Positions 25,241 to 38,268 of a stretch of 64,000 bases of DNA are shown one piece after another. Made by a program: the position numbers and the translations under genes. Below the pieces are notes generated by a model, which saw nothing but the letters and a program-made list of their open reading frames with translations, was not told the DNA's origin and searched no databases. Origin of the DNA: Escherichia phage vB_EcoM_ESCO10; the sequence record OM386655.1. One strand, given 5' to 3'. The number at the start of each line of letters is the position of its first letter. Positions within the stretch are counted from its first letter, which is position 1.

Positions 25241-25465
25241 TTATTCAACACCAGCTGCTTTCAAAAGTTTTTTAAGATTGGCTGTGCCCTGAGCAGAAAA
25301 CGTGACCTTGCCACCTTTTTCACTGATAGAACCAACCAATTTGGCAAGTTTATCATTAGGAATTTTTTTAAAATCGGCCAATGTTCCATCAAAGGTTTTT
25401 GAAACAAAAGGCAGTTCGTCTTCGTGTCTTTTAGCTTCTGTGATAAATTCTTGATATGTTTTCAT
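25241..25465 (-). CDS. internal-protein-like head cargo protein (position of T4 ipI)
   Basis: Begins MKTYQEFITEAK at ATG 25465; overlapping early and late (TATAAATA) promoters upstream; adjacent to 57B as ipI is in T4. Confidence 0.7.
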   Translation of the reverse strand: MKTYQEFITEAKRHEDELPFVSKTFDGTLADFKKIPNDKLAKLVGSISEKGGKVTFSAQGTANLKKLLKAAGVE

Positions 25466-25502
25466 TTTGATTTCCATTTGGTTGGTTTGTTTTGATAGGG
25501 TA

Positions 25503-25531
25503 ATAGTATCATATTTATAAATGCTGTAAAC
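25503..25531 (-). promoter_or_regulatory. overlapping early and late (TATAAATA) promoters for IP-like gene
   Basis: GTTTAC 25526..25531 and TACTAT 25503..25508; exact TATAAATA (25512..25519) sits inside the spacer. Confidence 0.55.
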
Positions 25532-26221: not shown

Positions 26222-26229
<8 letters not shown>

Positions 26230-26980
26230 TTTTATTTCCTAATAATTTATCAATAGTAGTGTATAGTTCAGAAAGGGTTCCGTTATTTTCAATAACAACG
26301 TCACCCGGTAAAATTGGTAGACCCGCTTCAGTAATGTGCGAGTCTTGTACTTGACCGGTATCAGCGCGAACTACGTGAATAATCGTAGCACCCATCGCCC
26401 TGAGCGAATCAATTTCATGTGTTTGACGAACATCAGGTACGACATAGTATTTCGCATCAGAATATATTCTATCAAAATAGTCTAAAGCGAATAACTTAAC
26501 CCAATACATCTTATCAAATTGGTTAACAATAACATCGGTCCCAAGGGTCTGCATGAGACGACGTACTGACCAATTGTTAATATTATTTATTACTTCAAAC
26601 AGGTAGTCTTTTGTTTCTTCAGACAAATACTGGATAGTAGGGCCGTAATGATACTGGGTACAGACATCAATTCCTTTAATAGGAAGTATATTATTCAGTT
26701 TAACGATAGCATGTTCAAAGATGTCAATAACATCATATGGTTTTAAAGGAAGGATTTCTTCGCGGTTGTATCCAATACCTTCAAAACAATTAAAATCTAA
26801 TTTAGGCATATAGCTACGATCGAATACGGGGTCATCAGATATGTATTCGTAAGCTTCTGCTAGATACTTTTTAATAGGCCCAGCGAGCTGGAATTTAACA
26901 GAATCCATATTCTCAATTACATAGTTAGCAACGGTGTCCTTACCGCTACGTTTGAGTCCTACAATTGATATTAGTTTCAT
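26222..26980 (-). CDS. 1: gp1 deoxynucleoside monophosphate kinase
   Basis: MKLI...G.KRSGKDT P-loop; strong similarity to T4 gp1 (...WSVRRLMQ.LGTD..VN.FD.MYWVKLFALDY...). Confidence 0.9.
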
Positions 26981-27658: not shown

Positions 27659-28495
27659 TTATGCGTTCTTCCAAACTTTCTGAGCTGAGTAACGCTTACC
27701 TTTAGACATGAACTGCTGGAGAGGCATCATTACTACATTAGCCCAATCAGATGGTTTTATCTCTACCAAAGGACCTTTTATATTTCCTGGGATATAAGCT
27801 TTAATCATCATGTCGGCACCAGCGAATCCTTTAACTTTACTCCAATCGATTTTTAATTTTGTCGAGTTAGTAATGGTAGGCGTACTCGCGTATTGCTTCA
27901 GCAATTCTTCTAGAAATTGTTGGCGTGCTTTAGGTGGAATATAGTGTAAGTTCAACCCGTACATAAGATTATGCTTACCAAGCCCTAGATAAATGATTAA
28001 AGGATATTTGTCCCAATACGGTAATGTATCCTTGTGTTTGGCATCATAAATATAAGCATAAAGCTTGCCAGGAGACGGTTTAGATACCTGGTGTCCACGA
28101 ATTCCTTTCTTTAACGTTTCTGTAAACCATTTAGCCGATTTATTGTTTACAGCAGCGCCTTCATTAGCAATCTTATCACGAATACTCTTTCTAAAACTAT
28201 TTACCAAAATTAATTGACGTTCAGCTTTGGTTAATTTATTGCCAGGTTTCTTCTGGAGTTTTTCGACTTGTACAGCGGTTTTAATTCGACTCGAGTATCG
28301 AGACATCGCAGATGTAAAGCTAGAATACTTGATGCCTTTATCTTCAGCGAATTTCTTAGCCGAGGCACCTTTAGCCTTAGCTTTGGCATATTCAACACCT
28401 AAAGCTATCCATTGTTGTTCCGAACGAGTAGGCTTAGAACCTTTTGTGGTTTCAGTAGCCTCATTGATGTAGGAAAATATACTCATCCTTTCCAT
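27659..28495 (-). CDS. 2: gp2 DNA end protector
   Basis: 278 aa (T4 gp2 about 274); synteny 3-2-4; basic protein. Confidence 0.75.
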
Positions 28496-28932
28496 CCTAA
28501 TTTTTTCAGTGAGTTTTCAGTTATCAATCTAAAATTGATTCCCATTTTATCTGCTGTAGCTTTAGCAGCTTTCCATTTATCTTTATTTACACTCCATGTA
28601 TAATGTTCGTTGATATATCTCTTTTTAGCGGCTGTAGTCATTTTAGCAGGCGCCGCTGGAGGATGGGTTTCTTTAAAAGGTTTGACTTCAAAAAAGAATT
28701 GTTGGCCATTATCAAACTTAACCCAGAAGTCCATAAAATAACGACGTTTCTTTCCATCCGCATTACTAAAATATGGGATAACCACCTCTTCAGAGTTCCA
28801 TTGGACCACGTTAGGATGGTTATCAAGCCAACGCATGAGCCATGCTTCCCATGAAGAACGATATTGGATTTTCTTCCAGTCACCTTTATATTTTTGTAAG
28901 TTAGTAGGTTTAAATTTCCCTGAGTAAGCCAT
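28483..28932 (-). CDS. 4: gp4 head completion protein
   Basis: 149 aa; similar to T4 gp4 (MAYSGK...GKKRRYFMD...TTAAKKR...YTWSVN.DKWKAA); AAGGAGG SD; minus-strand late promoter upstream. Confidence 0.85.
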
Positions 28933-28943
28933 AGTTGCCTCCT

Positions 28944-28951
28944 TATAAATA
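28944..28951 (+). promoter_or_regulatory. late promoter (TATAAATA) for gene 53
   Basis: Exact TATAAATA 27 nt upstream of the gene 53 ATG. Confidence 0.65.
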
Positions 28952-28958
28952 TTAATAT

Positions 28959-28966
28959 TATTTATA
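28959..28966 (-). promoter_or_regulatory. late promoter (TATAAATA) for gene 4, divergent from the gene 53 promoter
   Basis: Exact minus-strand TATAAATA 27 nt upstream of the gene 4 ATG. Confidence 0.6.
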
Positions 28967-28978
28967 CTCGGAGGCCCT

Positions 28979-29581
28979 ATGCTCTTCTCATTTTTCGATC
29001 CTATCGATTACGAATCAAAAACAGTCAAGCCGGATTCGGGCTCATTAACTAATGCCGATGTATTGAGCGTGCCGATGACTGATATATTTAGAAATTATAA
29101 AGAATATTTTGATAAAGTGGCTAAAAATTATACACTAAAAACTTATTACATCAACGGAGCCCCTCGCCCAGAAGAATTAGCTAATCAACTTTATGGTAAC
29201 GTTCAATTGTATTGGGTCCTTTTGATGTGTAACAATATCTATGACCCATATTACGGATGGATTACAGGACAGGAATCTGCCTATCAAGCGGCCATTCAAC
29301 GTTATGCTACCGCAGGTGGAAACCAAGTCCTTTATCATGTTAATGAAAAGGGTGAGAAATTCTGGAATCTTGTTAACACACCAGAAAATCCATATACTTG
29401 GTATGACAAAGGTGATACAGAAAAACGTTATCCTCAGTACGAAGGCCCATTGGCCGCAGTAGATATTTACGAGGATGCTATTCGTAAAAATGAATATAAG
29501 CGCGAAATAAAAATAATCGACCCTAATGATATTGAGTCTTTTATTTCTGCTCTTATTCGCGAAATGGAGAAAGCCCTCTAA
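28979..29581 (+). CDS. 53: gp53 baseplate wedge protein
   Basis: 200 aa; similar to T4 gp53 (MLF.FFDPI.Y..KTV...PMTDIFRNYK.YF); late promoter + GGAGG SD. Confidence 0.85.
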   Translation: MLFSFFDPIDYESKTVKPDSGSLTNADVLSVPMTDIFRNYKEYFDKVAKNYTLKTYYINGAPRPEELANQLYGNVQLYWVLLMCNNIYDPYYGWITGQESAYQAAIQRYATAGGNQVLYHVNEKGEKFWNLVNTPENPYTWYDKGDTEKRYPQYEGPLAAVDIYEDAIRKNEYKREIKIIDPNDIESFISALIREMEKAL

Positions 29582-31323
29582 TGATTAACATGTCTGATAA
29601 CGTAAGTTGGTTCGTCGGTGTAGTTGAAGACCGAATGGACCCACTACAACAAGGCCGAGTACGTGTACGTGTATGGGGTATGCATCCGTATGAAAAAGTA
29701 CAAGGCCCTGTAAAAGGCCTTCGTACAGAAGATTTACCATGGATGTCTGTATTGATGCCTACATCTTCTGCATCTGTTTCAGGTATCCAAACTGCCATGA
29801 CAGGCATGGTCCCAGGCACACAAGTTTATGGTCATTTTCTTGATAAATGGAAATTAAACGGGCTTGTCCTCGGTACATATGGGTCTGCTTCAAAACAAAA
29901 AGCAAACCCTAATGAAGGTTTTAGTGACCCTACAGGACAGTATCCACTTTATTTAGGTAATGACGCTGCTGCACTAAACAGAGGTGGTGAAGTTGGATAC
30001 GACGCCACGTCTAATATAATACAAGATGCAAACACCGATGTAGGTATTAATCCTGATGGATTAGACTTAAGCCAAGTCAAGCCTGATGATAATCCTAATT
30101 TCACAATAGAAAACATGCTTCATCGTGATGAGGGCCTTCGTCTTAAGGTATATTGGGACACAGAAGGATATCCTACTATAGGTATAGGCCATCTTATTAC
30201 TCCACAACCTATTAGAGATATGAACCAGATAAACAAAATATTATCTAATCAGGTAGGACGAGAAGTTAAAGGTAACCCCGGTGCAATATCAATGGACGAG
30301 GCTTCTAAATTATTCCAAGAAGACCTTAAAAAAGTCCAAAATGATATAGGCCGGCATAGTGTTGTAGGTCCTGTTTACAATAAAGAAAACCGTTCAAGAC
30401 AAATGGCTCTTGAAAACATGGCTTTCCAAATGGGATTAGGTGGATTGGCTAAATTCCGTGGAATGCTTAGTGCAATGCTAATAGGCGATTATAAAAAGGC
30501 ATTTGAAGAAGCTCGTAATTCAGTGTGGTTTAACCAAACTAAGGGGCGTGCATCAAGGGTGTCAATGATTATCCTCACAGGTAACGTGGAATCATATGGT
30601 ATTATGGCCCCTAAAGAAAGAGAATTTAAAGGGCGCTCATATAGAATGATTCAAACCTTTGCAGCTCCTGCGAATTCCGACCCAGCAGATCCGTGGACGC
30701 CAGAAGATACAAGAATTCTTTTTAAAGAACCTGATTCTAGTTATAAAGGTGAATACCCATATGTCCAAACCATGCAGACCGAAGGTGGACACATCCAAGA
30801 ATTTGATAACACCCCAGGGCAAGAACGTTATCGTTTAATCCATCCAACCGGTAGTTATGAAGAGGTTGCTCCTGATGGTCGTAAAACTTCTAAGACGGTG
30901 GCTGATGGGTATTATATGACCCAAGGCGATTCTAATACTTATGTTGGCGGTAATAATAAAGTCAACATAGGTGGTGATGAAACATATTATAATATGGCAA
31001 ACGTGCGCCGTCAAACTGACGGGTCTGAAAGCATCCATATTCGTGGTAATGAAACCAAAACAGTAGAAGGTGATGGAACCCTTATTGTTAAAGGAAACGT
31101 CACAATTCTTGTTGAGGGTAATGCAGATATAACTGTTAAGGGTGACGCAAAAACATTAGTTGAAGGCAACCATGATTATACAGTAAATGGAAACGTTAAA
31201 TGGTCTGTAAATGGAAACGTTGATATGGCTGTTGCAGGCAATTGGTCTGAAACAATGAGTACGATGAGTTCAATTGCTTCAGGCCAGTACACTATTGATG
31301 GTTCGAGGATTGACATTGGCTAA
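29581..31323 (+). CDS. 5: gp5 baseplate hub / tail lysozyme
   Basis: 580 aa; internal lysozyme domain DEGLRLKVYWDTEGYPTIGIGHLI paralogous to gene e; C-terminal beta-helix VxGxxxxx repeats. Confidence 0.95.
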   Translation: MINMSDNVSWFVGVVEDRMDPLQQGRVRVRVWGMHPYEKVQGPVKGLRTEDLPWMSVLMPTSSASVSGIQTAMTGMVPGTQVYGHFLDKWKLNGLVLGTYGSASKQKANPNEGFSDPTGQYPLYLGNDAAALNRGGEVGYDATSNIIQDANTDVGINPDGLDLSQVKPDDNPNFTIENMLHRDEGLRLKVYWDTEGYPTIGIGHLITPQPIRDMNQINKILSNQVGREVKGNPGAISMDEASKLFQEDLKKVQNDIGRHSVVGPVYNKENRSRQMALENMAFQMGLGGLAKFRGMLSAMLIGDYKKAFEEARNSVWFNQTKGRASRVSMIILTGNVESYGIMAPKEREFKGRSYRMIQTFAAPANSDPADPWTPEDTRILFKEPDSSYKGEYPYVQTMQTEGGHIQEFDNTPGQERYRLIHPTGSYEEVAPDGRKTSKTVADGYYMTQGDSNTYVGGNNKVNIGGDETYYNMANVRRQTDGSESIHIRGNETKTVEGDGTLIVKGNVTILVEGNADITVKGDAKTLVEGNHDYTVNGNVKWSVNGNVDMAVAGNWSETMSTMSSIASGQYTIDGSRIDIG

Positions 31324-31357
31324 TATTTTACCTATGAGCACAGATTTAGGAGATTCC

Positions 31358-31855
31358 ATGGAAGGAAGCTCTATCGATGTTACGTTTACAGCTCAATTAG
31401 AAACAAACGAAACATTAGTTGAAATAAATATAACAGAATATGAGCCTACAGAAGGCATTATTGTCGATGGAGCTCGTTTATATGGAACCTACGAATCTGT
31501 ATTTGGATTCTCTGAGGATGCATTAAAATACCGATTAGGAGATGAATTTAAAACTGCCGGTTCATGGAAAGACCTACCAACTGATAGTAATGCTCAATTA
31601 TACCTCTGGAAAGCTCCTGGTAATCTTCAGAAGACATTTTCTTACACAGTCACATTAACCTATGACTTTCAAGAAGAGACGTCAGGAGGCGATACAGGGA
31701 ACTCAGGCGGCAGTAACTCTAGGGCTGGCGCTGAAACCGATCCACCTCCTGCTCCTGTAAGAAAAACTCTTACCAAGGTTTATACCAAGGTTATAGTCGG
31801 AAATTGGAGCAAGTGGGCTAACCAATTAAGAGAATATGTATATGCGAGGCCATAA
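31358..31855 (+). CDS. 5.1: gp5.1-like baseplate-associated protein
   Basis: Track ORF 31274..31855 overlaps gp5; start placed at ATG 31358 behind AGGAGA SD (alternative 31334). Confidence 0.6.
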
Positions 31856-32148
31856 TGTCTGGGTTAAGTTATAACCAATGTGTGACAGCAGGTCATGAAG
31901 CATGGCCTCCTACCATAATTAACGCCACCCAAGGTAAAGTATTTACCGGTGGAATTCCTGTATTAGTTGATGGGGACCCTATTACAGAACATACAGAAAT
32001 TAAAAAACCATATGAAACCCACGGTGGGGTAACCCAACCTAGAACATCAAAGGTGTATGTTACAGGCAAAAAGGCTGTCCAGATGGCAGACCCGATTTCA
32101 TGTGGTGATACAGTCGCCCAAGCCTCAGCAAAAGTGTTTATAAAATAG
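31855..32148 (+). CDS. 5.4: gp5.4 PAAR-repeat spike tip protein
   Basis: 97 aa, near-identical to T4 gp5.4 as recalled ([19 protein letters not shown]...). Confidence 0.9.
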
Positions 32149-32156
32149 GAAAACTA

Positions 32157-34115
32157 ATGGCTACTCCTACGAATTACCAATTAACAAGAACCGTTAACGC
32201 TATCCCAAAAGTATTTGTGGGAGCTACGTTTGAAGAAATTAAAAAGAACATCATTGACTGGCTTTCTAGCCAGGAAGAATTTAAGGATTATGATTTCGTT
32301 GGTTCTCGAATGAATATTCTTATCGATATGCTTGCTTATAATACGTTGTATATGCAGCAGTTTGCTAACACAGCTTTATACGAATCTTTTATAGGAACGG
32401 CAAACCTTCGTTCTTCGGTTGTCCAGGCTGCACAAGATAACGGATATCTCCCTAGTTCTAAATCAGCGGCAAAAACTACGGTAATGCTTACTTGTACCCA
32501 GGCCCTTAATGAAAAGAATATCCGTATCCCTAGAGGTACTAAATTCCTGGCTTATGCCCGTGATACATCAGCGGACCCGTATTCTTTTGTGACCACTGAT
32601 AACGTTATTGCCGTACGCGATGTTAATAACCAATATTGGCCTATTGTTTCTTTGGCCCAGGGACGTATTATTCGTACTGAACTTAAATATGACCCTAAAA
32701 CTCCTATTCTTATTCGTGACCCGGATATTGATAGACAAGAAGTTAAACTTTATGTTGATGGGGCCGAATGGATTAACTGGACTAATAAATCAATGGTCCA
32801 TGCAGGCAGTACTTCAACAATTTATTATATGCGTGAAACCGTAGATGGTAATACAGAATTCTTCTTTGGTGAAGGTGAAGCCGAGAAATCCGTTGCCGGT
32901 GGAGTATTAGAAGCTAATTATATCGGTGGTCTGAAACCTGTTAAAGATTCTACTATTGTTATCGAATATCTTCGTACAGACGGTGAAGTTGCTAACGGTG
33001 CAGTGGATTTCAGTTATGCAGACTCATTGGCTTATATAACCGTAGAAAAAATTACAGAAAACTATAATGACGACCCGGATTATGTGGGTGCTGACGGTGG
33101 CGGCGACCCTGAAGATATTGAACGCATTCGAGAGCTGGCTGTAGTTAAGCGTGAAGCCCAGATGCGTGCTGTTACAGGAACCGACTATGATACATTCGTG
33201 TCTGAACGTTTTGGTTCTATTGTACAGGCAGTACAAACCTTTACAGACTCAAATAAACCAGGTTATGCTTTTGTTACCATTAAACCTAAATCAGGGCTGT
33301 ATTTGACCGCTGTTCAACGTGAAGATATCCAAGATTATCTAAAAGAATTTAACTTAGCACCTATTACCCCTTCTGTTATTTCTCCCGACTATTTGTTCTT
33401 AAAGCATAAAATTAAAGTTTCTTATGCTCTGAATAAATTACAGGAATCTGAACAGTGGTTATCGGCTCAAATTCTTTCTCAGATAGATCGTTATTATATT
33501 AACGAAGTAGAAATTTTTAACCACGGTTTCGCTAAGTCTAAAATGTTGACTTATATTGATAATGCAGACCACAGTATTTTAGGTTCTTCGGCTACAGTAA
33601 CAATGGTTCGTGAGGTATTGAACTTTTTCAAAACTCCTGAGTCAGGTATTAAATACTATAATCAATACACTAACCGTTCTGTGGTTTCTAGTGAATTTGA
33701 GTTTGTCCCTACTAACGTTTCTGAAGACCTCCCATCATATAATGTCAGAATTGCTGCTACAGATAAAGATGAGCGTGGTGATGGTAAAATAATTATTGGT
33801 CCTTTCCGTCCAGGAGATGTGATTGAAAACCAATATATTAAACCTTATACAGGAAATGACTTTGATAAAATGCCGGCTCCTGCGGACCAATCTGTTTATT
33901 ACGTTATAGGTGAAATCGATTATTATTCGGATTTCATTTTCTGGGACATTGCGGCTATCGGTTTAACGTCTGATCGTTTTGAAGTTCAATCTATAGAACT
34001 TTATGCAGGACCTGACCAAGATAACATCTTTACAAAAGACGGTTCGTTAATTGTATTTGAAGATGACCTCCGCCCTCAATACACGACCATTGAATTAGAA
34101 CCTATTACAATATAA
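32157..34115 (+). CDS. 6: gp6 baseplate wedge protein
   Basis: 652 aa; synteny and size (T4 gp6 660 aa). Confidence 0.9.
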   Translation: MATPTNYQLTRTVNAIPKVFVGATFEEIKKNIIDWLSSQEEFKDYDFVGSRMNILIDMLAYNTLYMQQFANTALYESFIGTANLRSSVVQAAQDNGYLPSSKSAAKTTVMLTCTQALNEKNIRIPRGTKFLAYARDTSADPYSFVTTDNVIAVRDVNNQYWPIVSLAQGRIIRTELKYDPKTPILIRDPDIDRQEVKLYVDGAEWINWTNKSMVHAGSTSTIYYMRETVDGNTEFFFGEGEAEKSVAGGVLEANYIGGLKPVKDSTIVIEYLRTDGEVANGAVDFSYADSLAYITVEKITENYNDDPDYVGADGGGDPEDIERIRELAVVKREAQMRAVTGTDYDTFVSERFGSIVQAVQTFTDSNKPGYAFVTIKPKSGLYLTAVQREDIQDYLKEFNLAPITPSVISPDYLFLKHKIKVSYALNKLQESEQWLSAQILSQIDRYYINEVEIFNHGFAKSKMLTYIDNADHSILGSSATVTMVREVLNFFKTPESGIKYYNQYTNRSVVSSEFEFVPTNVSEDLPSYNVRIAATDKDERGDGKIIIGPFRPGDVIENQYIKPYTGNDFDKMPAPADQSVYYVIGEIDYYSDFIFWDIAAIGLTSDRFEVQSIELYAGPDQDNIFTKDGSLIVFEDDLRPQYTTIELEPITI

Positions 34116-34132
34116 GCCTCTTAGGAGGCTTT
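34114..34132 (+). other. intergenic stem-loop overlapping the gene 6 stop
   Basis: AAGCCTC-TTAG-GAGGCTT immediately before the GAGGAG SD of gene 7. Confidence 0.4.
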
Positions 34133-34143
34133 GAGGAGATTTA

Positions 34144-37100
34144 ATGTCTGTACAAGCGCCTTCCGTTACTAGTTTGAGAATCGATAAACTCTCGGCTAAC
34201 CATGTAAGTATTCTTTGGGATGACGTAGGCGCCAATTTCTATTATTTCGTAGAACTGGCCCAAACCAAGGATGCGGGTGAATCTATACCCGATGATAAGT
34301 TATTTTGGAGAAATTTAGGTTATACCCCGAACAACAATTGGTTCGAAGAAAGATTTATTTCTCCTAATTCGTTTTATAAAATGCGTGTCGCTGTAGCAGC
34401 TCAAGGATTTGAACAATCTGACTGGGTTTATACAGAAGAATTCGAGACATTTTCTACCAACGCATATACCTTCGAGCATATGCGAGAATTCACTTTATCT
34501 AATAAATTCATTGAAGAAAAATTTACCAAAAATAACCAGAGTTACGTGGATTTTAATAGTGACGCCATTATGGCTTCTATGATGGCCGAAGATTTTACTT
34601 GGACTCCGGCATATTCGCACCTTTCTTCAATTTCTAATTATGTATTAAAGGCCGACCGCTTCCATGAGATTCAAGGAAGTATCCAAGCTGTTTGTAAAGA
34701 CCCTAATCGTTCCATTTTAATGGAGCTTGGTGGAGTACTTTATCTTTTAGAAAGATTTCAGAACACTGCTAAGGTATCTAATGACAAAGCTCAAAACTGG
34801 CACTATATTCGCCTGTTTAACGACCGAGTTGGTAATCCGGTTTCACGTACGGCCCATTACCAAACAGACACCACAACTTATGTTTTAGGTTATGATCGTA
34901 TATTTTACGGACGTAAATCGAGCGATATCAGATGGTCTGCTGATGATGTACGTTTTAGCTCGCAAGATGTGACTTTTGCTAAAATTGGTAGTGATATTGA
35001 CCTTGATTTTGAAATTGAAATTTTTGGTTCTTATGCTCGTTTACCGTTAGCTATTTCTACTATAGCAGAGGCAATATGTGCTTCGGATGATTTTATTTAC
35101 GTAGCTGCTAGAGACAGAGTTTATAAAGCAAAAACCACTGATGCCCCTATTGACACCGATCCAGGTTCACCTACTTACGGTGAAAAAATATTTGAAAGTG
35201 GATATTCTTCTATAACAGGTAATCCTAAAGCGGTTTGTTATAAACTGGATTCTATTCAGGGAAATACCTTTGCCTTAATTACAGGCGAAGTTAAAGAAGA
35301 AAGAATGGACCCTACTAAAGAAGAAAACGTGGTTGATTCTGAATCTAAAGGTGTTTATTGGCTTGATGTCGAAACCGATACATGGACCCGAGTATTTGGT
35401 AATACTGAAGAAGAGAGACGCCGTATTGAGCATGGTTATACCAGCATGTCTACAGATGGTGAAGAAATATTCTTTAGTTCTAGCAACTTCAAATATGAGG
35501 TAGAAGTTGACAATGAATTGCCTTTAGAATACCCTATCGTGGCTTCTGCAGTAAAATACGTTAAGGATGAGCAGTGGATTCACGATAAACACTATCTTAT
35601 GATGAGCTTTAGGGCTAACAGTAAATCAGATTTTAAAGAATTCAAACCTGGTAGAATGGCTTATTATGCTGAACCGTTCTTTAGTTGGTCTAGACGTGAT
35701 GGGACCCGCTCTTGGATTACCACAAGTAATCATGTAATGGTGGTTTATAATGATGCTTTATATCAGAAAATTATTGATTTAAACAGTGGTTCTTCTCCTG
35801 AACGTATTATCCGTGAAATTTGGAATAAAGGCTTTTGTACTGTAACATGCCCTAACATCGAATTCAATGGGTTTAAAAAATATTCTTCAGGTATCATGAT
35901 TCATAAATCATCAGGTGAATTGGTAGGATATTTTGAGTTCGATTATCGAGTTCGAGACGAGGTTAGAATAATTTGGAAGCCTAAAGAAATAATGTTTACG
36001 GCTGAGCTCCAAAACCAAGAGCATGAGATTCCATGGACTCCTAAAGAAGAAACCGGTGAACAGGACCCTGATTTGCGTCCTTTATTGGTTAAAATGGTTC
36101 CTGATAGTTATTTGCTTCAAGATTCTAACTTTGAAAAATTCTGCGAATATTATCTTCAATTTATTAGTGATGGCTCCGGCACCCATTATAATAATCTATT
36201 AAATCTTATTCGCAACCAATATCCTAGAGAAGAAGATGCATGGGAATACTTATGGTCCGAAATCTATAAACGTAATATCTATTTGTCTAAAGAAAAGCGT
36301 GATGAAGTAGTTCGTTTCTTCCAGGCTCGACAATCTGATTTCTGGTCTACAAAAGGTACCGAAGCTTCTTATAAGTTCTTGTTTAAATTGCTTTATAACG
36401 AAGATGTTGAAATTGATATCGAGTCTAAAAACTCTATTGAATACGATATCATCGTAGAATCTGATAATATCAGTGAAGATATAGTCGGCCAAACAATTTA
36501 TACTCCTACAGGAAGAAGTAATGTTACTTATATAGAACGAAATTATAAAGATGGTAAATTGCAATGGCGTTTAACCATTCATAATCTTTTAGGTCGTTTT
36601 ATAGTGGGTCAAGAGATTAAATCTGAACGCACATCATTTAAAGGTATGATAGTGCAGGGTGTACGCGGTAAAGAATTGTTAAGTAACAATATCGATTATA
36701 TTAACCGCAACCGTTCTTATTATGTTATGACTATTAAATCAAACCTCCCAACTTCTCGCTATCGTAATGACGTGTTGAGATTTGTCCATCCGGTAGGATT
36801 TGGTTTTATAGGGATTACATTGCTTTCTATGTTTGTTAATGTCGGTTTGACATTAAAGCACACGGAAACCATTATTAATATACTTAAGAACTATAAGTGG
36901 GACTCGGGACTTCCGTCAGAATGGTATGATAGAGTTGCTGTAATCGGATTTGATGGTAATATAGAACGAGACCCTAGAACAGGGCTCCCGGTTTATAATG
37001 TCGGTCCGAAAGCAGGTGAACCATTCCCTATTCCGGCAGATTATGATACAGAAAATGATTTCTCTGTATTCCAAGGCCAATTACCTCATGAACGTATTAA

Positions 37101-37236
37101 AAAGCACAGTCCTTTATTTGACCAAAGCGCGGTAACATTTTCAAAATGGCGAGCTTTAGTTGACGACAGACTTAAAGCTGATATCGGAAACCCTAGAGAC
37201 CCACAAGACCCAACTCAGGTAAAAATTGATGATTAA
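34144..37236 (+). CDS. 7: gp7 baseplate wedge initiator
   Basis: 1030 aa (T4 gp7 1032); synteny. Confidence 0.9.
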   Translation: MSVQAPSVTSLRIDKLSANHVSILWDDVGANFYYFVELAQTKDAGESIPDDKLFWRNLGYTPNNNWFEERFISPNSFYKMRVAVAAQGFEQSDWVYTEEFETFSTNAYTFEHMREFTLSNKFIEEKFTKNNQSYVDFNSDAIMASMMAEDFTWTPAYSHLSSISNYVLKADRFHEIQGSIQAVCKDPNRSILMELGGVLYLLERFQNTAKVSNDKAQNWHYIRLFNDRVGNPVSRTAHYQTDTTTYVLGYDRIFYGRKSSDIRWSADDVRFSSQDVTFAKIGSDIDLDFEIEIFGSYARLPLAISTIAEAICASDDFIYVAARDRVYKAKTTDAPIDTDPGSPTYGEKIFESGYSSITGNPKAVCYKLDSIQGNTFALITGEVKEERMDPTKEENVVDSESKGVYWLDVETDTWTRVFGNTEEERRRIEHGYTSMSTDGEEIFFSSSNFKYEVEVDNELPLEYPIVASAVKYVKDEQWIHDKHYLMMSFRANSKSDFKEFKPGRMAYYAEPFFSWSRRDGTRSWITTSNHVMVVYNDALYQKIIDLNSGSSPERIIREIWNKGFCTVTCPNIEFNGFKKYSSGIMIHKSSGELVGYFEFDYRVRDEVRIIWKPKEIMFTAELQNQEHEIPWTPKEETGEQDPDLRPLLVKMVPDSYLLQDSNFEKFCEYYLQFISDGSGTHYNNLLNLIRNQYPREEDAWEYLWSEIYKRNIYLSKEKRDEVVRFFQARQSDFWSTKGTEASYKFLFKLLYNEDVEIDIESKNSIEYDIIVESDNISEDIVGQTIYTPTGRSNVTYIERNYKDGKLQWRLTIHNLLGRFIVGQEIKSERTSFKGMIVQGVRGKELLSNNIDYINRNRSYYVMTIKSNLPTSRYRNDVLRFVHPVGFGFIGITLLSMFVNVGLTLKHTETIINILKNYKWDSGLPSEWYDRVAVIGFDGNIERDPRTGLPVYNVGPKAGEPFPIPADYDTENDFSVFQGQLPHERIKKHSPLFDQSAVTFSKWRALVDDRLKADIGNPRDPQDPTQVKIDD

Positions 37237-38233
37237 CTCAACAGTAATATACCGTTCTATTGTTACTTCTAAATTTAGAACGGAAAAAATGTACAACTTT
37301 TACAGAACAATCGGTGATGGCGAAGACCAGAACACGATGTATGTATCTTTCGGAAGAGCCCAACCATGGGCTCCTAACGAAAACGACCCAGGCTTTGCTC
37401 CGCCGTATCCTGTGGATGATTCTGAGGGCGTAGAGGATGTCTGGACAAACATGATGGGTTGTGTTAAGGTTTATAAGAGTATGCTGGATTGTGTTGTTCC
37501 TCGCAAAGACTGGGGCGATACCTCTTATCCTAATCCTTTCACATTCCAGATTGGTGAAATTGTAGTGGCGAATAGCCAGCCACAAAACCGTACTGATGTC
37601 GGTGCAGGTTGGATGGTTTATCGTTGTGTAGACGTTCCTGAATCTGGAGCATGCTCTATTTTATCTCTTGATAACAAAACAGAGTGTATTAAACTTGGTG
37701 GTAAATGGACCGCTAATGTCCCTTCAGTTAAAGCCCCAGCTGGACAAGGTGACACTGAAGGTATGGTTGATACAGGCGACGGTTATCTTTGGGAATATCT
37801 TTATGAGATTCCACCTGATGTGAGCATTAACCGTTGTACCAATGAATACATTGTGGTTCCATGGCCGGAAGAAATTGCTGAAGACCCCGAACGTTGGGGA
37901 TATGAAAATAACCTCACTTGGCAACAAGATGATTATGGGTTGATTTATCGTATTAAAGGCAATACTATTCGTTTTAAAGCATTCCTAGATTCGGTTTATT
38001 TCCCTGAATTTAGTTTGCCAGGGAATAAAGGATTTAGACAACTTTCAATAATTTCTAACCCATTGGAAGCTAAAGCCCACCCATCCGATCCGATCATTAA
38101 AGCCGAAAAAGAGTACTATGATGTTATAGACCTCTCCCGCCACTCAGGTGAAATGATTTATATGGAAAACCGTCCTCCGGTTATTCGTTCCATGGACCAA
38201 ACCGAAGAAATTAACATTATCTTCGAATTCTAG
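37226..38233 (+). CDS. 8: gp8 baseplate wedge protein
   Basis: 335 aa (T4 gp8 334); synteny. Confidence 0.9.
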   Translation: MMINSTVIYRSIVTSKFRTEKMYNFYRTIGDGEDQNTMYVSFGRAQPWAPNENDPGFAPPYPVDDSEGVEDVWTNMMGCVKVYKSMLDCVVPRKDWGDTSYPNPFTFQIGEIVVANSQPQNRTDVGAGWMVYRCVDVPESGACSILSLDNKTECIKLGGKWTANVPSVKAPAGQGDTEGMVDTGDGYLWEYLYEIPPDVSINRCTNEYIVVPWPEEIAEDPERWGYENNLTWQQDDYGLIYRIKGNTIRFKAFLDSVYFPEFSLPGNKGFRQLSIISNPLEAKAHPSDPIIKAEKEYYDVIDLSRHSGEMIYMENRPPVIRSMDQTEEINIIFEF

Positions 38234-38256
38234 AAAGGGGCCGCAAGGCCCTTTCG
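38233..38256 (+). terminator. possible terminator/attenuator after gene 8
   Basis: GC-rich hairpin AGGGGCC-GCAA-GGCCCTT with only a short T tract. Confidence 0.4.
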
Positions 38257-38260
38257 GGGG

Positions 38261-38268
38261 TATAAATA
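38261..38268 (+). promoter_or_regulatory. late promoter (TATAAATA) for gene 9
   Basis: Exact TATAAATA 26 nt upstream of ATG, preceded by a GC hairpin. Confidence 0.65.

Follow-up and report, generated by a model that had tools for sequence, protein, structure and literature searches.

A probable pair of interdigitated late promoters between genes 4 and 53 of the Dhakavirus Escherichia phage vB_EcoM_ESCO10

Genes 4 and 53 of Escherichia phage vB_EcoM_ESCO10 are transcribed away from each other, and the intergenic gap between them measures 46 bp (67% A+T). How can two units that run in opposite directions both be started from such a gap? We analyse the junction within a 64-kb stretch of the phage genome, hereafter the window, to which all coordinates refer unless another genome is named. 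The explanation that we favor, with a probability of roughly 0.9 for the whole of it, is that the gap consists of two interdigitated late promoters of the T4 type, P53 and P4, which would be recognized by gp55 and would fire alternately.

Genes and signals at the junction

At this locus the phage shares 95% identity with Escherichia phage vB_EcoM-VR5 and 94% with JS98 (Dhakavirus, Tevenvirinae). Following the annotation of JS98, the minus strand carries 57B-57A-1-3-2-4 in this order, and the plus strand continues with 53-5-5.1-5.4-6-7-8-9-10-11. The features of the junction are as follows.

28483 to 28932, minus strand: gene 4, head completion protein, a 149-aa ORF at the head of the leftward late unit 4-2-3
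28938 to 28942, minus strand: Shine-Dalgarno site GGAGG of gene 4, 5 nt before the ATG
28944 to 28951, plus strand: late-promoter box of P53, an exact TATAAATA at positions -13 to -6, with the predicted +1 at A 28957
28952 to 28958: spacer TTAATAT, 7 bp, all A/T, holding both predicted start sites
28959 to 28966, minus strand: late-promoter box of P4, an exact TATAAATA (TATTTATA on the plus strand) at positions -13 to -6, with the predicted +1 at A 28953 on the minus strand
28970 to 28974, plus strand: Shine-Dalgarno site GGAGG of gene 53, 4 nt before the ATG
28979 to 29581, plus strand: gene 53, baseplate wedge subunit, a 200-aa ORF (Pfam Phage_gp53, E 1.6e-73; same annotation in JS98)

Along the plus strand the gap and its two start codons read CAT AGTTG CCTCC T TATAAATA TTAATAT TATTTATA CTC GGAGG CCCT ATG. 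The original prediction had placed two boxes within 23 bp, one facing gene 53 and the other gene 4, and direct reading returns exactly the coordinates that it gave. The gene identities that it named agree with the ORFs, with the Pfam Phage_gp53 match, and with the annotation of JS98, RB69, and T4. In addition, the boxes had been put about 27 nt from the start codons, each with a strong Shine-Dalgarno site. Measured from box to ATG, the distance is 27 nt for gene 53 on the plus strand (ATG at 28979) and 26 nt for gene 4 on the minus strand (CAT at 28930-28932), with GGAGG on both sides.

The identity of the flanking genes is clear. Gp4 matches its counterpart in JS98-like contigs at every residue (100% identity), and the protein is annotated as gp4 in JS98, RB69, and T4. 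The ORF that follows gene 53 encodes gp5, with the Gp5_OB, lysozyme, and Gp5_C domains. Residues 39-139 of gp4 also match PF08722 (Tn7_TnsA-like_N), a restriction-endonuclease-like fold, with an E-value of 2.9e-24.

A T4 late promoter is defined by an 8-bp box at -13 to -6 (PMC1524935) and lacks a -35 element (PMC2988020). Downstream of the box these promoters typically have an A/T-rich stretch, and T4 late transcripts are found with either polarity (PMC2988020). In the gene 4/53 gap, the 8-bp TATAAATA box lies about one helical turn before the predicted start site on both strands, and the stretch downstream of it, TTAATAT, is 100% A/T. There is no conserved -35 element, the sequence upstream of each box being coding or Shine-Dalgarno sequence, and the boxes stand just upstream of genes for virion or assembly proteins, gp53 and gp4. 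The start sites at 28957 (plus) and 28953 (minus) are predictions, extrapolated from the T4 rule that the box occupies -13 to -6. The sequence TATGAATA is a point-mutated form of the late box TATAAATA.

Two details of the original prediction need adjusting. It described the junction as a switch between an early and a late strand. The strand direction does flip here, but both flanking genes are late, since genes 4, 2, and 3, although located on the strand that carries the early genes, encode virion or assembly proteins. The first early gene on the minus side is gene 1 (dNMP kinase, 26222 to 26980), about 2 kb off. The other detail is the statement that the two -10 elements nearly abut, which understates the overlap: each box would fall within the opposite transcript, at +3 to +10, and 4 bp separate the predicted starts.

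Downstream of P53, the next exact TATAAATA on the plus strand is at 38261, before gene 9. Genes 53, 5, 5.1, 5.4, 6, 7, and 8, which together cover about 9.3 kb, have no exact plus-strand box after P53. Since no exact box occurs on the plus strand from 28951 to 38261, genes 53 to 8 would depend on P53 or on variant promoters. A candidate variant box, AATAAATA, is found at 31423, inside gene 5.1. Barring weaker variant promoters, P4 probably drives genes 4-2-3 and P53 probably drives the 9.3-kb unit from gene 53 to gene 8. The pair would thereby mark the origin of both the leftward unit 4-2-3 and the long rightward baseplate unit 53 to 8.

Conservation of the box pair

The claim that the gap holds two divergent late promoters finds support in the exact consensus of both boxes, in the layout shared with T4, RB69, and 12 other relatives, and in promoter calls made in silico for RB69. 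Relatives of gp4 are present in 29 viral contigs, and gp53 is divergently adjacent in 18 of them. These 18 contigs, the window, and T4 give 13 distinct intergenic sequences of 45-56 bp; RB69 makes 14. All 13 variants contain [T/A]ATAAATA, then an A/T-rich spacer of 6-11 bp, and then TATTTATA, and both boxes are kept down to 63% identity of gp4 and 52% identity of gp53. Across the 14 distinct sequences the gene 53 box is always [T/A]ATAAATA, varying solely between T and A at -13, a position at which A is tolerated in T4 and its relatives (PMC2988020; PMC1524935). The gene 4 box is invariant in all 12 sequences of an alignment, A1, the invariant blocks of which are CAT, CTCC, ATAAATA, TATTTATA, GGAG, and the start codon. 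The spacer of the A1 sequences varies in sequence and keeps its A/T-richness. As judged from the alignment, the pattern of invariant blocks is the phylogenetic footprint of two putative promoters and two putative ribosome-binding sites.

In the gp4 loci L019-L030, which are more distant, gp53 is absent from the neighboring 2 kb, and these loci are not comparable with respect to the box pair. Among them, TATAAATA lies upstream of gp4 at varying distance in L021-L023 and L026-L029, and no exact TATAAATA lies upstream of gp4 in L019, L020, L025, and L030. The P4 side of the arrangement may be older than the divergent pairing. A scan of viral contigs for TATAAATA-N5-12-TATTTATA is uninformative on T4-like phages, many GVMAG giant-virus assemblies being among the matches listed. 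Another divergent junction, between rnh (minus) and gene 34 (plus), is located outside the window, at 150471-150579 of JS98 (4472-4580 of contig L154), and might hold a similar promoter arrangement.

The box sequence is enriched in the window and sorted by strand. Exact TATAAATA occurs 16 times, where 8.0 +/- 2.4 copies are expected, and none of 100 shuffles reached 16. Apart from the pair itself, the three minus-strand copies all lie to the left of 28.9 kb and the 11 plus-strand copies all lie to the right, a sorting that agrees with gene direction. Ten of the 16 copies precede an ORF of 80 aa or more on their own strand, at a distance of 21-48 nt from its ATG. A plus-strand box followed by a minus-strand box within 0-15 bp appears in 0.5% of 400 windows simulated with a Markov-1 model. 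The divergent box pair is not a chance product.

Could one box alone be a promoter, the other being a palindrome arm or an AU-rich leader whose gene is transcribed from elsewhere? Each box would be transcribed as UAUUUAUA in the opposite leader, so that a second constraint on it is conceivable, and a review of T4 cautions that some late consensus sites still lack in vivo proof of activity (PMC2988020). However, no further box with at most one mismatch occupies a plausible upstream position for gene 4, 2, 3, or 53 on either strand, and genes 4 and 53 each head the late block of their strand. In addition, variation in the P53 box is confined to -13, where it is tolerated, and the P4 box does not vary at all. 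In T4, L014-L016, and L018, moreover, the hairpin that the gap can form is not kept beyond what the functional elements impose. We regard a single-promoter gap as improbable, although it fares best among the alternatives to the two-promoter reading.

Palindrome, hairpin, and neighboring sites

28930 to 28981: quasi-palindrome running start codon, Shine-Dalgarno site, box, spacer, box, Shine-Dalgarno site, start codon

The junction is a quasi-palindrome because its consensus boxes and its GGAGG sites come in opposed pairs. For RNA of 28925-28985 the predicted fold has a free energy of -22.7 kcal/mol (z -5.0) when read from the minus strand and -20.8 kcal/mol (z -5.7) when read from the plus strand, and in an RNA that reads through the gap the predicted hairpin engages the two Shine-Dalgarno sites and the two AUGs in base pairs. 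RNAs with their 5' end at a predicted late start fold at -3.1 and -4.3 kcal/mol, which is shuffle-like (z -0.5 and -0.4). The predicted starts, 28953 and 28957, fall in the 7-nt loop of the hairpin, and the late mRNAs would carry no 5' arm.

When only the unconstrained positions are shuffled, the fixed elements alone account for about -11 to -12 kcal/mol. The gene 4 strand folds significantly better than such shuffles in the Dhakavirus variants (fraction of constrained shuffles at least as stable, <=0.013) and in L008 (0.027); in L010, T4, L014-L016, and L018 it does no better (fractions 0.14-0.94). Maintenance of the hairpin beyond the functional elements is not family-wide. The Dhakavirus variants differ from one another only at internal-loop positions. 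In a QL01-like Dhakavirus (L003, 1947-2009), the outer 12 bp, CATAGTGCCTCC and GGAGGCACTATG, form a perfect inverted repeat, and the predicted read-through hairpin reaches -24.6 kcal/mol.

A function for such a structure has a precedent. For e, soc, 49, and I-TevI of T4, RNA structure hides the ribosome-binding site in the long transcripts made early, which cannot be translated; the late transcripts begin within that structure, leave the site accessible, and are translated (Uzan and Miller 2010, PMC3014915). The hairpin described here resembles these cases in that the helix pairs the Shine-Dalgarno site and the AUG and in that the predicted late starts lie inside the structure. It differs in that gene 4/53 is absent from the published list (PMC3014915) and in that most of the hairpin arises inevitably once two promoter and ribosome-site units mirror each other. 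If the hairpin were functional, early-direction read-through from the antisense strand of genes 5 and 53 would yield RNA in which the Shine-Dalgarno site and the AUG of gene 4 are paired, and only RNA started at P4, beginning inside the loop, would be translatable. The candidate source of the read-through would be an oriE-type promoter at 31014->30986. Gene 4, and symmetrically gene 53, would then join the e/soc/49/I-TevI class of genes gated at translation. We consider this gating of gene 4, and symmetrically of gene 53, unlikely, and take the hairpin to be a by-product that may have consequences.

It is more doubtful still, and less probable than a single-promoter gap, that the inverted repeat serves primarily as the site of a dimeric protein such as DsbA, or as an RNA or DNA hairpin, with the promoter match being secondary. 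The whole gap is indeed quasi-palindromic, with a strong predicted hairpin. In addition, DsbA has been reported to bind, weakly, A/T-rich sites that overlap two late promoters (PMC2988020), and dsbA is present in JS98. However, the spacer ranges from 6 to 11 bp, which shifts the relative phase of the half-sites, and DsbA is non-essential and has no effect in vitro. As for a hairpin, head-to-head promoters with Shine-Dalgarno sites are necessarily palindromic, as the energy of the constrained shuffles illustrates, and an Rfam search of 28600-29300 gave no match.

Genes 53 and 5 each contain a sigma-70-like match on the antisense strand, at 29154->29127 and 31014->30986, respectively, with weak terminator-like sites between these matches and gene 4. 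The number of sigma-70-like matches in the wider 6 kb is not above shuffle expectation (24 versus 19.6 +/- 4.5). The weakest alternative, which we set aside, is that the boxes serve host sigma-70 (early) or MotA-dependent (middle) promoters as their -10 elements, or arose by chance in A/T-rich DNA: TATAAA does resemble TATAAT and the gap is rich in A+T, but no sigma-70-type site with the required -35 element at 16-18 bp is called within the gap, the genes on either side encode virion proteins, the pair is shared between genera, and simulated windows seldom produce it.

The match inside gene 5 is the best sigma-70-like site of the region, TTGACG-17-TATAAT (11/12) at 31014-30986 on the minus strand. 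In relative position it corresponds to the oriE promoter of T4 (L001 7378->7350, with a rep_origin annotated at L001 7356). Antisense to the beginning of gene 5, a 51-aa ORF (29585-29740, minus strand) shares 49% identity with T4 RepEB. The likeness in sequence and position suggests that the gene 5 promoter and the RepEB-like ORF form a conserved oriE-like module. No clear array of 12-nt iterons is seen, and a weak 13-nt repeat is located at 31184-31221. The cumulative GC skew is lowest at about 26-30 kb, where the coding strand changes between genes 4 and 53. This agrees with a remark on T4, namely that oriE is close to a site at which transcription diverges and the compositional bias shifts (PMC3016281).

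A further exact TATAAATA, at 25512-25519 on the minus strand, stands 34 nt upstream of a 78-aa ORF (25241-25477, minus strand) that begins MEIKMKTYQEFITEAK. This beginning resembles the capsid-targeting N-terminus of T4 internal proteins. The counterpart stretch of JS98 (72190-72839) is unannotated. ORF 25241-25477 is probably an unannotated late internal-protein gene.

Proposed mechanism and known counterparts

How would two late promoters of this geometry work? Recognition would be by E. coli RNA polymerase with the phage sigma factor gp55, assisted by the activators gp33 and the gp45 sliding clamp. The genes for gp55, gp33, gp45, gp44/62, and DsbA are annotated in JS98 and all lie outside the 64-kb window. 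Going by JS98, so close a relative at this locus, vB_EcoM_ESCO10 presumably possesses gp55, gp33, gp45, and gp44/62 and would use gp55 in the same way. Gp55 reads the box on the melted non-template strand and flips the bases at -12, -9, and -8 (PMC7892883).

From P53, transcription would start at about 28957 on the plus strand and yield a rightward baseplate mRNA of genes 53-5-5.1-5.4-6-7-8; from P4, it would start at about 28953 on the minus strand and yield a leftward mRNA of genes 4-2-3. The two transcripts would diverge without overlap. Both leaders would be about 21-22 nt long and of the form A(A/U)UAUUUAUA-GGAGG-AUG.

The bubble of P53 would begin at or before 28945 and that of P4 at or before 28965, with the spacer common to both, and within this shared region the roles of template and non-template strand would be swapped between the two promoters. 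With contacts of gp33 at about -35 to -39 and a further 13 bp covered by gp45, each complex would span the whole gap and the first codons of the opposite gene. Because the melted base pairs are shared, only one polymerase at a time should be in an open complex, and the promoters should alternate. From this geometry we infer that simultaneous open complexes at P53 and P4 would be sterically impossible and that firing should be mutually exclusive, in line with the interference suggested in the original prediction. Since the clamp activates in one orientation only, oppositely oriented clamps should serve P53 and P4. The junction would be a small natural example of two activator-dependent promoters that have to use a single melted region, and the orientation of the clamp could decide which of them fires.

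The same arrangement is present in T4 (AF158101), in which the gene 4/53 junction reads CAT-N11-TATAAATA-GATAATA-TATTTATA-N13-ATG. The two phages share the orthologous flanking genes, the two opposed TATAAATA boxes, the A/T-rich spacer of 7 bp, the GGAGG sites, and a gap of similar length (47 bp in T4, 46 bp here). They differ in the sequence of the spacer (GATAATA in T4, TTAATAT here) and in the flanks, which are less palindromic in T4, with a read-through hairpin of -14.6 versus -22.7 kcal/mol. The T4 pair is said to have been mapped experimentally by Scarlato, Storlazzi, Gargano, and Cascino in 1989, in work that reportedly dealt with overlapping promoters and the divergent transcription of the T4 base plate gene cluster.

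In RB69, late promoters Pl:80613(+) and Pl:80684(-) were predicted in silico (Nolan et al. 2006, PMC1524935, Additional file 5). They bracket the junction between gene 4 (80177-80626, minus strand) and gene 53 (from 80688, plus strand), and the core, TATAAATA-GTATTAT-TATTTATA, has the N7 spacer and the same gene 4/53 setting as the window. The leader of RB69 gene 53 is longer (26 nt from box to TTG start), and the RB69 gap is therefore 61 bp. Further opposite-strand overlapping late-promoter calls were made at 118620/118672 in RB69, 144977/145030 in RB49, 32617/32662 and 165888/165930 in RB43, and 122785/122835 in Aeh1 (Nolan 2006, PMC1524935). These pairs are alike in being opposite-strand calls within a few tens of bp; compared by call positions alone, they differ in offsets that imply other box geometries.

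In the window, as in T4 and RB69, genes 4 and 53 diverge, the plus-strand box lies to the left of the minus-strand box, each box falls in the other's predicted transcribed leader, and the spacer is 7 bp. The GenBank records of Dhakavirus genomes carry no promoter features, and the pair is useful for their annotation. The feature is not new: it is the Dhakavirus orthologue of the gene 4/53 divergent late-promoter pair already described.
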